Assembly (NCBI GenBank): GCA_946545035.1
Contig: CAMNND010000001.1
Coordinates: 34,809 to 98,808 of the forward strand
DNA from: an uncultured Clostridium sp.
Lineage (GTDB): Bacteria > Bacillota > Clostridia > TANB77 > CAG-508
Direction: 5' to 3'
DNA: 64,000 bases
In this document: positions 36,956 through 38,503 of the stretch, in pieces
How the letters are laid out: the number at the start of each line of letters is the position of its first letter
Numbering within the stretch: the first letter of the stretch is position 1
The notes under the pieces: generated by a model
The model's input: only the letters and a program-made list of their open reading frames with translations
Told to the model about the DNA's origin: nothing
Databases searched by the model: none
Translations under genes and position numbers: made by a program

Positions 36956-38503
36956 ATGGAAAGAAAAGCTGTTATTGATGTTTCTCATTGAGATGGTACA
37001 GTAGATTACAATGCTTGAATTAAAAAATATAATCTATGAGGAGTTATTGTAAAAGCCGGCGGCGATGAAACTAAATTAGGTCGTTATACTGATCCTCAAT
37101 ATGAAAATAATTATAAACGTGCAAAAGCCGCAGGTCTTCATGTTGGCGCATACTATTATACCGTTGTAACTTCTGTAGAAGAAGCTAAAAAAGATGCGGA
37201 ACATCTTATCAATTTATTAAAAGGGCATAAATTTGATATGCCTATTTACATGGATGTAGAAGATCCTAGTCAATTTAAGTTATCCAAGAGTGAGCTAACT
37301 GCTGTAATTAAAACTTTTTGCGATGCTCTCATTAAAGCTGGATATTATGCGGGACTCTATATTCAAGGTTCTGCTTGATTAAATCATGTTAATAAAAATG
37401 AATTAGATGATTATGCTAATTGAATTGCTTGATGACGTGCAAATTGACCAACAGAAGCAGGAGCCATTGGAATGTGGCAACAAGGCACAAAACGTCTAAG
37501 CGATGGTAAAGTATATTACGATGATATTCGTGGTTGTACAGATTTTAATTGGTGTATTATAGATTATCCTTCTCGTATTAAAGCTAATTGAACTAAGCAA
37601 AAACAAGAAGCTGAACCTACTCAAACAACTATAAAAGAAACAAAAGAGGAAACTACAGTGACTACTACTAATAATAAATTAACAAAATTTTGTAGTTGAA
37701 TGTATACAGCATGTGCTGTATGATCTCTTGGATATGACCAATATCAACGTCAAAATATATATGATGGTGGAGAGTGTGACTGTTCAAGTCTTGTAATTTG
37801 AGCTTTAAAGAAGGCTGGATTTGATACTGGTACAGCTTCTTATACTGGAAATATGTCTGAGAATCTTACAAAGCGTGGATGAACTCGGCTTCCCGCAGAT
37901 CTCTCAACCGCACGTCCTGGTGATATTCTTCTAAATGATACTTATCATGTTGCCGCAGTTATATCTGGAAATGGATGAAATGCTAAAATTGCACAAGCAT
38001 CTATTGATGAACGTGGACGAGCAACTGGCGGACAAGCTGGAGATCAAACTGGTAACGAAACCAATATTAAAAATATCTATACATACAGTCGTGGTTGATC
38101 ATGTATTCTTCGTTATCAAGGTGGCACTACAACTGGAGCATCTATTAAATTAAATGTAGATGGCATAGCTGGACCTGCAACCATTAAAGCTTGACAAGCA
38201 GCTTTAGGGACTGTCCAAGATGGAGTTATTAGTGGCCAACTACGAGGAGATTGGCAATATTTCCCAGGAGTGCAATCTGTAACTTGAGAGCGTACCGGTT
38301 CTCAATTGGTTAAAGCTATCCAAAAAAAAGTTGGAGCTACTGTAGATGGATATTGAGGGCCTGCAACTTCAAAAGCTATTCAAGAATTCTTAATCAAAAA
38401 TGGTTTCAGTGTAGGTGCGGAAGGTGCTGATGGTTATTTTGGTACCAGCTCTGTAAAAGGATTACAAAATTCTCTCAATTCTACTAAAAATCCTTGAAAA
38501 TAA
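36956..38503 (+). CDS. Multidomain endolysin (~515 aa): N-terminal GH25 muramidase-like (DVSHWDGTVDYNAW..VIVKAGGD), central NlpC/P60- or CHAP-like Cys/His peptidase (CDCSSLVIWALKKAGFD...GDILL..HVA), and two C-terminal PG_binding_1 repeats (GPATIKAWQAALG.. / DGYWGPATSKAIQEFL); ~25 in-frame TGA
   Basis: RBS cattaaggagggg + ATG 36956. Frame 2 is open through TGAs to TAA ~38501-38503. Domain calls rest on motif recognition (established families). Confidence 0.55.

Follow-up and report, generated by a model that had tools for sequence, protein, structure and literature searches.

Module-wide TGA recoding, and a TGA-free holin explained by one codon, in the lysis cassette of a probable Agate-like phage

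The 64-kb stretch of DNA analysed here (the window; 64,000 nucleotides of contig CAMNND010000001.1) carries a lysis cassette in which a holin gene free of in-frame TGA codons precedes an endolysin gene, and a further gene between the two, that contain many of them, raising the question of whether the supply of a suppressor tRNA gates the translation of the downstream genes and so sets the time of lysis, as the original prediction for this locus had proposed. Our analysis indicates that the TGA-free holin is the chance state of one codon and not a timing device. The window is probably about half of a ~125-kb virulent phage in which recoding is module-wide and the holin stays the clock, of the TGA-recoded ‘Agate’ kind that Borges et al. 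(10.1101/2021.08.26.457843) describe as having recoded structural and lysis genes and a standard-code replication machinery.

Open reading frames (ORFs) were translated with TGA as a sense codon (code 4), and domain hidden Markov models (HMMs) were run on the code-4 proteins. The cassette comprises three successive plus-strand genes, with products of 115, 448, and 515 amino acids (aa), and its features are as follows:

35234–35581, plus strand: holin, 115 aa, Hol44-type by HMM matches and hydrophobicity, 0 TGA and 1 TGG
35390–35392, plus strand: sole Trp codon of the holin, TGG at codon 53, TGA in 9 of 15 distinct orthologues
35598–36944 including the stop, plus strand: gene of the 448-aa protein, 7 TGA and 0 TGG
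36956–38503, plus strand: modular endolysin, 515 aa, 22 Trp codons (19 TGA, 3 TGG), without a signal sequence
36974–37480, plus strand: GH25 muramidase domain, aa 7–175, E = 7e-24
37682–38137, plus strand: ELLD/Amidase_5-like Cys-His domain, about aa 243–394, by HMM
38147–38485, plus strand: PG_binding_1-type wall-binding region, about aa 398–510, by HMM, with two repeats seen by eye
38508–38539: bidirectional terminator with a 13-bp stem, between the endolysin gene and the convergent minus-strand genes

To judge by its predicted proteins, the region is a genuine holin–endolysin lysis cassette of the Gram-positive type. The holin matches PF16079 (Phage_holin_5_2) with 37.8 bits against a cut-off of 29.2 (E = 2e-9), as well as phrog_1129 ‘holin’ of PHROGs (E = 1e-16), with strongly hydrophobic segments at aa 4–28 and 34–58 followed by an acidic C-terminal tail. 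The endolysin is a predicted GH25 peptidoglycan hydrolase, its match to PF01183 (85.5 bits) covering profile positions 1–170 of 180, with further matches to the ELLD family PF25309 (E = 1e-21) and, borderline and only at the cut-off of that family, to Amidase_5 (E = 3e-4). The C-terminus matches PG_binding_1 with 33.8 bits against a cut-off of 23, and two DGxxGPxT repeats can be made out by eye, with the HMM giving no two separate domain matches. Neither a signal sequence nor any other N-terminal hydrophobic segment, such as one of signal-anchor-release (SAR) type, was found in the endolysin, and the cassette showed no spanin gene. The endolysin is a mosaic, with a GH25 half 37% identical to Lachnospiraceae phage endolysins and a C-terminal half about 50% identical to a Bifidobacterium phage lysin, the Cys-His domain having 50–55% identity to lysins of Bifidobacterium phages. 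Gardnerella phages are also among the relatives. Holin and endolysin are separated in the window by a 1.35-kb gene with spacers of 16 and 11 nt, whereas in most relatives the two genes are immediate neighbours. A second, TGA-free endolysin was not found among the window proteins scanned, which were all but the tail-fibre protein of 3489 aa and the products of a few small ORFs.

These calls uphold the gene order of the original prediction, with the middle gene ending at 36944 rather than 36945 and its product being 448 rather than 449 aa. The GH25, Cys/His peptidase, and PG_binding_1 assignments were borne out by HMM, the doubling of PG_binding_1 only by eye. The holin is indeed TGA-free, but the ~25 and 9 TGA codons ascribed to the endolysin and middle genes become 19 and 7 when counted in frame; counting in any frame gives 40 and 29, and the earlier, inflated counts lie nearer to these.

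Under the standard code, the endolysin would terminate after 11 residues and the 448-aa protein after 65, with the first in-frame TGA at codons 12 and 66 respectively. To judge from homologous sequences, TGA is read as Trp in both proteins, since orthologues exchange it for TGG at equivalent columns and standard-code homologues have Trp opposite it, and the earlier claim that neither protein can be made otherwise holds on the same grounds. In an alignment of five endolysin orthologues, 23 columns contain Trp, and at 15 of these TGA alternates with TGG; Leu, Gln, and Tyr each appear once at TGA columns and Gly never. Alignment with two standard-code phage lysins places Trp at 6, and an aromatic residue at 9, of the 16 aligned endolysin TGA positions. 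That TGA is instead a true stop, leaving gene fragments or pseudogenes, or that it encodes Gly or selenocysteine (Sec), has next to no probability. The reading frames are broken under table 11, and ARAGORN labels a UCA tRNA found in one relative ‘SeC’, but full-length domain matches span the TGA codons, orthologues keep the ORF length, the UCA tRNA fits the general tRNA model and not that of tRNA-Sec, and 19 Sec residues in one lysin are implausible. The domain matches, the orthologue columns, and the alignment to standard-code lysins together rule these readings out.

Orthologues drawn from IMG/VR, a metagenome scan, and one metagenome-assembled genome (MAG) provided 15 distinct holin sequences, each with a single conserved Trp, the codon of which is TGA in nine and TGG in six. 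It flips among close relatives, with TGA in L004 and L047 against TGG in L040, TGA in L049 against TGG in L048, and TGA in L042 and L006 against TGG in the window. At the Trp codon usage of the window’s late genes, the chance of TGG at a single Trp codon is 0.22–0.34, and a holin without TGA is thus not beyond chance, because one codon alone is concerned. The endolysin is no more enriched, with a TGA fraction of 19/22 compared with 73/93 in other low-GC late genes (p = 0.56), and the 7/7 of the 448-aa gene likewise does not depart from the low-GC late background (p = 0.34). The high TGA count of the endolysin stems from its Trp-rich composition, 4.3% of its residues being Trp compared with mostly 1–2% in other late genes, and the endolysins of relatives contain 11–16 TGA codons, with the fraction falling to 12/21.

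In canonical holin–endolysin lysis, the holin sets the time whilst the cytoplasmic endolysin accumulates harmlessly. With the holin as clock and no N-terminal hydrophobic segment in the endolysin, gating the endolysin alone would therefore not time lysis. This bears on a designed gate, in which the holin is translatable under either code and the endolysin and 448-aa protein await the suppressor, thereby setting the time of lysis. Such a gate is consistent with the window and its near-identical copies L007, L008, L009, and L041, in all of which a TGA-free holin is followed by genes with 7 and 19 TGA codons, yet it is highly improbable given that the difference lies in one holin Trp codon with an appreciable chance of being TGG, that this codon is TGA in most of the distinct orthologues and flips between near-identical pairs, that the endolysin and other late genes have equal TGA fractions, and that, with neither signal sequence nor SAR-type segment in the endolysin, timing rests with the holin. 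Recoding of the lysis genes beyond that of other late genes, as a means of preventing premature lysis, is reported by Borges et al. for a lysis-cassette transmembrane protein and the adjacent tail protein of Agate phages, and the counts of 7/7 and 19/22 TGA for the 448-aa protein and endolysin could be taken in that sense. It is nonetheless unlikely here, although less so than a designed gate, as neither gene departs from the low-GC late background, the endolysin TGA fraction drops in relatives as given above, and the holin, whose premature expression would kill, is TGA-free in the window and carries at most one TGA elsewhere.

The original prediction had itself proposed that TGA be compared in the holins and endolysins of relatives. 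That comparison, with its flipping codon and 9 TGA to 6 TGG in the orthologues, does not uphold the asymmetry, and the claim that lysis timing is gated by a suppressor through it is not supported either, the endolysin being no more recoded than other late genes. The more general idea that late and lysis genes await a suppressor stands as a published, module-wide hypothesis, Borges et al. having proposed that recoding delays the translation of late and lytic genes, but not as a feature of this cassette.

The distribution of TGA over the rest of the window follows modules rather than single genes, the blocks flanking the cassette being:

241–35200, plus strand: late (tail and adhesin) block upstream of the lysis cassette, every Trp-containing gene with in-frame TGA
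38547–41069, minus strand: convergent recoded block, 13 TGA and 2 TGG, encoding a membrane protein, a RuvC-like resolvase, a dUTPase, and a protein of unknown function
41462–63438, minus strand: replication and nucleotide-metabolism module, essentially TGA-free, with TGG for Trp
56802–57785, minus strand: GIY-YIG endonuclease gene inside the TGA-free module, 5 TGA and 0 TGG

Nearly all plus-strand late genes have TGA as their principal Trp codon. Together these genes (241 to 38503) contain 145 TGA and 66 TGG codons, compared with 6 and 84 in the replication module (Fisher p = 2e-25), where five of the six TGA codons sit in the GIY-YIG endonuclease gene. The products of this module include NrdG, NrdD, DNA polymerase, a RecJ-like exonuclease, primase, and DnaB helicase, together with Sak4, ThyX, ligase, and gyrase A/B-like proteins. 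The Lys, Glu, and Gln codons of these early genes have A in third position in 71% of cases, but TGA is absent from the 78 Trp codons of thirteen replication genes, which indicates that it has been actively purged from them. In the late genes 89% of such codons end in A and about 78% of Trp codons are TGA, the level expected for an ordinary AT-favoured synonymous codon. The same dependence is visible within the 3489-aa tail-fibre ORF, where TGA predominates in segments with a GC content at third codon positions (GC3) of 0.11 and TGG in those with a GC3 of 0.45.

This ORF and the next two genes form a GC mosaic on the plus strand (19560–32332), with a GC3 of ~0.45 at 24060–27059, where 2 TGA and 17 TGG codons occur, and again from 28560 on. 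The high-GC3 tail-fibre segments suggest recent import from a higher-GC, standard-code source, and the proteins downstream of the ORF bear Listeria-Bacteroides repeat, H-type lectin, and CBM_5_12 domains. In the GIY-YIG protein of the window, the GIY-YIG domain is preceded by a hydrophobic segment at the N-terminus and a long stretch resembling a coiled coil. Recoded GIY-YIG genes also lie within the TGA-free early regions of two relatives, with TGA/TGG counts of 5/1 in L018 (1592–2422) and 4/0 in L056 (18708–19355), compared with 5/0 in the window, in a manner reminiscent of the recoded intron endonuclease described by Borges et al.

The endolysin and holin also bear on the host, which would carry peptidoglycan, as the original prediction correctly concluded from the wall-binding domain of the endolysin, with the Hol44-family holin and the Gram-positive phage relatives now pointing the same way. 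The evidence points to a Gram-positive bacterium because the holin is of Hol44 type, the endolysin carries PG_binding_1, no spanin was seen in the cassette, the relatives lie in Firmicute and Actinobacterial phages, and a copy with 70% identity resides on a contig that binning placed in an ‘uncultured Bacillales’ MAG. A Gram-positive bacterium of the gut or rumen using the standard code is the most likely host, that code being suggested indirectly by the avoidance of TGA in early genes, the peptidoglycan-targeting endolysin, and the Bacillales-binned contig. Were the host itself a code-4 bacterium, such as Mycoplasma or Spiroplasma, the phage would merely mirror it with no switch of code, in keeping with a GC content of 27–30%, with TGA never being a clear stop, and with a window devoid of a suppressor tRNA. 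This is very unlikely, since TGA is absent from the 78 Trp codons of the thirteen replication genes despite their AT-rich third positions, a relative carries a UCA tRNA of its own, and the phage encodes a three-module peptidoglycan hydrolase, whereas to our knowledge the known code-4 bacteria lack peptidoglycan.

Neither a tRNA nor any other RNA family was found in the 64-kb window by ARAGORN or by Rfam searches at gathering and permissive E-value thresholds. No tRNA was found in six endolysin-centred relatives (L001–L006), and gyrase-B-centred loci yielded tRNA-Ser and tRNA-Met only. The 125-kb relative L056 (IMGVR_UViG_3300021400_000244), whose shared regions are 81–89% identical to the window in DNA, carries a cluster of 12 tRNAs (16492–20918) among TGA-free genes, ~15 kb beyond the right end of the window in equivalent coordinates. 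One of these (17191–17287) is a 97-nt tRNA with the anticodon UCA and a score of 56.7 bits for the tRNA model of Rfam, located outside the window-homologous region, ~40 kb from the endolysin gene. It has a 7-bp extra arm with a 9-nt loop, CGUCCAAAA, resembling the anticodon loop of Trp (CCA) tRNA, and it bears A1–U72 and G73, which we take to be identity elements of tryptophanyl-tRNA synthetase (TrpRS).

The surroundings of this cluster hold further RNA-related features. A 488-aa protein that is Ro60/TROVE-like by eye is encoded 5 kb upstream (L056, 10001–11467), and within the cluster there are a weak match to YrlA, a Y RNA-like family (17309–17425), and a tmRNA-like fragment (19703–19782). 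In the window itself, an element of 91 nt on the minus strand (53793–53883) resembles a tRNA and escaped both ARAGORN and Rfam. Its acceptor stem has 7 bp, CCA is encoded, the anticodon loop reads CUGCUAA (GCU, Ser), the extra arm is long, and the T-loop is atypical. The predicted fold is a cloverleaf (z = −2.7), the stem differences from L037 are compensatory, and in L037, L038, and L039 a tRNA-Ser(AGA), absent from the window, lies immediately upstream of it.

The gene between holin and endolysin appears to be a lineage-specific insertion. It is kept in the lineage of the window (L007, L008, L041, and P0001–P0006, at 65–98% identity), reduced to a start-less remnant of 101 codons in the lineage of L006, L043, and L044, and absent in other relatives, where the holin abuts the endolysin. 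A profile search returned 121 distant homologues, mostly of 550–700 aa, with an extra N-terminal region of 120–200 aa that in three inspected homologues comprises a conserved domain and, after it, a stretch resembling a coiled coil, a build that would be tail-fibre-like. The 448-aa protein is akin to the C-terminal part of these longer proteins, without their N-terminal domain, and its gene may be a recently inserted module from that part of tail-fibre-like proteins. No N-terminal hydrophobic segment was found in it, and Pfam and PHROGs gave no usable annotation for it or for ten of the distant homologues, the sole hint being a weak precomputed match to PF27482 (Beta-prop_YycP). An AlphaFold model of P0001, 98% identical to the protein of the window, has moderate confidence (pLDDT 73.6) and places a beta-propeller at the N-terminus and a beta-rich domain at the C-terminus, with the beta-propeller glutaminyl cyclases 3mbr and 2faw as its best fold matches in the PDB (E about 1e-8) and the receptor-binding protein of phage phi11 (5efv) at rank 36 (E = 3e-6). 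The predicted propeller of the N-terminal half is thus shared with the Staphylococcus phage phi11 protein and with bacterial and plant glutaminyl cyclases, but the 448-aa protein shows no detectable membership of a sequence family.

By way of speculation, the 448-aa protein could be a free wall-glycan-binding or -degrading protein released at lysis, where it would aid the breach of the wall or destroy receptors on debris. The UGA decoder of the lineage may likewise be atypical, with a long extra arm yet the TrpRS identity elements noted above, and with an extra-arm loop (UCCAAAA) like the Trp anticodon loop. That both hold, the protein being a new kind of accessory lysis factor and the decoder an atypical tRNA, we consider unlikely.

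The likeness to Agate phages extends over several traits. Relatives of the window occupy contigs of 81–143 kb, those of ~125–143 kb being comparable to Agate genomes in size, and low GC, TGA as Trp in structural and lysis genes, and standard-code replication genes are shared. A recoded homing endonuclease in the early region is shared too, Borges et al. (10.1101/2021.08.26.457843) having found such a gene to be preferentially recoded, as is a suppressor tRNA that is not always detectable, such tRNAs being detected in only 35% of their code-4 genomes. The record names of several relatives suggest ruminant sources. In contrast, this cassette has the additional 448-aa insertion, and preferential recoding of lysis genes is not seen. 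The study by Borges et al. is said to have appeared later in Nat Microbiol (2022).

In megablast, 24 kb of the window had no match among GenBank phages, and neither a protein query nor a 26-mer DNA query aimed at extending the window leftward returned a match. Searches for identical proteins gave no record for the gyrase-B-like and RecJ-like proteins and, for the holin, short contigs only. Among other recoded phages, the ‘code-change module’ of Jade phages (Borges et al.), in which a recoded lysis cassette is immediately preceded by a suppressor tRNA, TrpRS, and RF1, resembles the present case in that the cassette depends on a phage UGA decoder encoded among standard-code genes, but no tRNA, TrpRS, or RF1 adjoins this cassette, and the UCA tRNA of the relative sits in a general cluster. 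The TAG-recoded crAss-like and Lak phages (code 15) likewise recode late and lysis genes and not early ones in a standard-code host, but they reassign TAG to Gln, infect Gram-negative hosts, and have cassettes with spanins. Canonical Gram-positive systems include Hol44/Lys44 of Oenococcus phage fOg44, the pneumococcal Cpl-1 (GH25), and Pal of Dp-1 (Amidase_5). The cassette shares with these a modular endolysin preceded by a small holin that spans the membrane several times and has a charged C-terminus, the lack of spanins, and a terminator after the cassette, and differs from them in an endolysin that needs 19 UGA read-throughs and in the unrelated 448-aa gene between.

Several observations weigh against reading the window as part of an Agate-like phage with a clean division into recoded late and standard-code early genes. 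No suppressor tRNA, release factor, or TrpRS was found within the 64 kb. The UCA tRNA was seen in one relative only, its anticodon-arm 19-mer occurring in no other viral contig and a query with a neighbouring protein returning just the same 125-kb contig, and it has a long extra arm as in Ser and Leu tRNAs, so that its charging with Trp is presumptive. Agate membership rests on resemblance in genome size, code, gene pattern, and habitat, the group being defined by terminase phylogeny and no terminase gene having been identified in the window. A perfect extended sigma-70 consensus (TTGACA, 17 nt, TG-n-TATAAT; 41379–41407, minus strand) lies ahead of the recoded block running from 41069 to 38547, and a host-type promoter in this place sits uneasily with a strict equation of recoded and late. 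Finally, NrdD of L040 (CAMPBT010000008.1, 6631–8583) has 5 TGA and 6 TGG codons, compared with 0 and 9 in NrdD of the window, showing that the boundary between recoded and non-recoded genes varies within the lineage.

Some further features were noted along the window. The product of either of two recoded membrane-protein genes could be the counterpart of the ‘strongly recoded transmembrane protein’ that Borges et al. describe near Agate lysis cassettes, one of 170 aa (15879–16391, plus strand) with a weak match to the holin family phrog_1296 (E = 6e-4) and the other of 220 aa (38547–39209, minus strand) with one N-terminal transmembrane segment, convergent on the endolysin. A small minus-strand ORF beside the DNA polymerase gene (44176–44532) has 4 TGG codons and one TGA, at codon 75, and may be the sole gene of the window with TGA as a real stop (74 aa), or one extended to 118 aa under a suppressor. 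In the close relatives L036 and L037 (91–96% identity), the DNA polymerase gene has an insertion of ~1.05 kb at its start (8580–9631 and 8143–9194, respectively), with ~45 bp of the window (about 48342–48386) aligning on both flanks, which may represent a mobile intron or a homing-endonuclease insertion.

In the module-wide reading, early genes would be translated by the unmodified apparatus of the host, and late genes would have to await the build-up of a UGA-decoding tRNA supplied by the phage. Within the late module, TGA and TGG would replace one another by near-neutral, AT-driven synonymous drift, and the cytoplasmic endolysin would wait for the holin to open the membrane, with the holin remaining the clock. 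Dependence on the suppressor would then be a second lock on late expression as a whole, not one specific to the endolysin.

The phage adds one more member to a kind of recoded phage already published, and its window offers a clean, internally controlled case of two coding regimes, useful for benchmarks of gene callers and for the study of how recoding spreads. New questions arise from two side leads alone, the 448-aa insertion and the unusual UCA tRNA of the relative. The published hypothesis of a delay at the level of modules is not overturned. As the GC3 mosaic and the flipping holin codon indicate, TGA is, given a suppressor, an ordinary AT-favoured Trp codon in the late genes whilst being strictly purged from the early ones, and this behaviour weakens gene-by-gene adaptive accounts such as that of a gated endolysin and an ungated holin.

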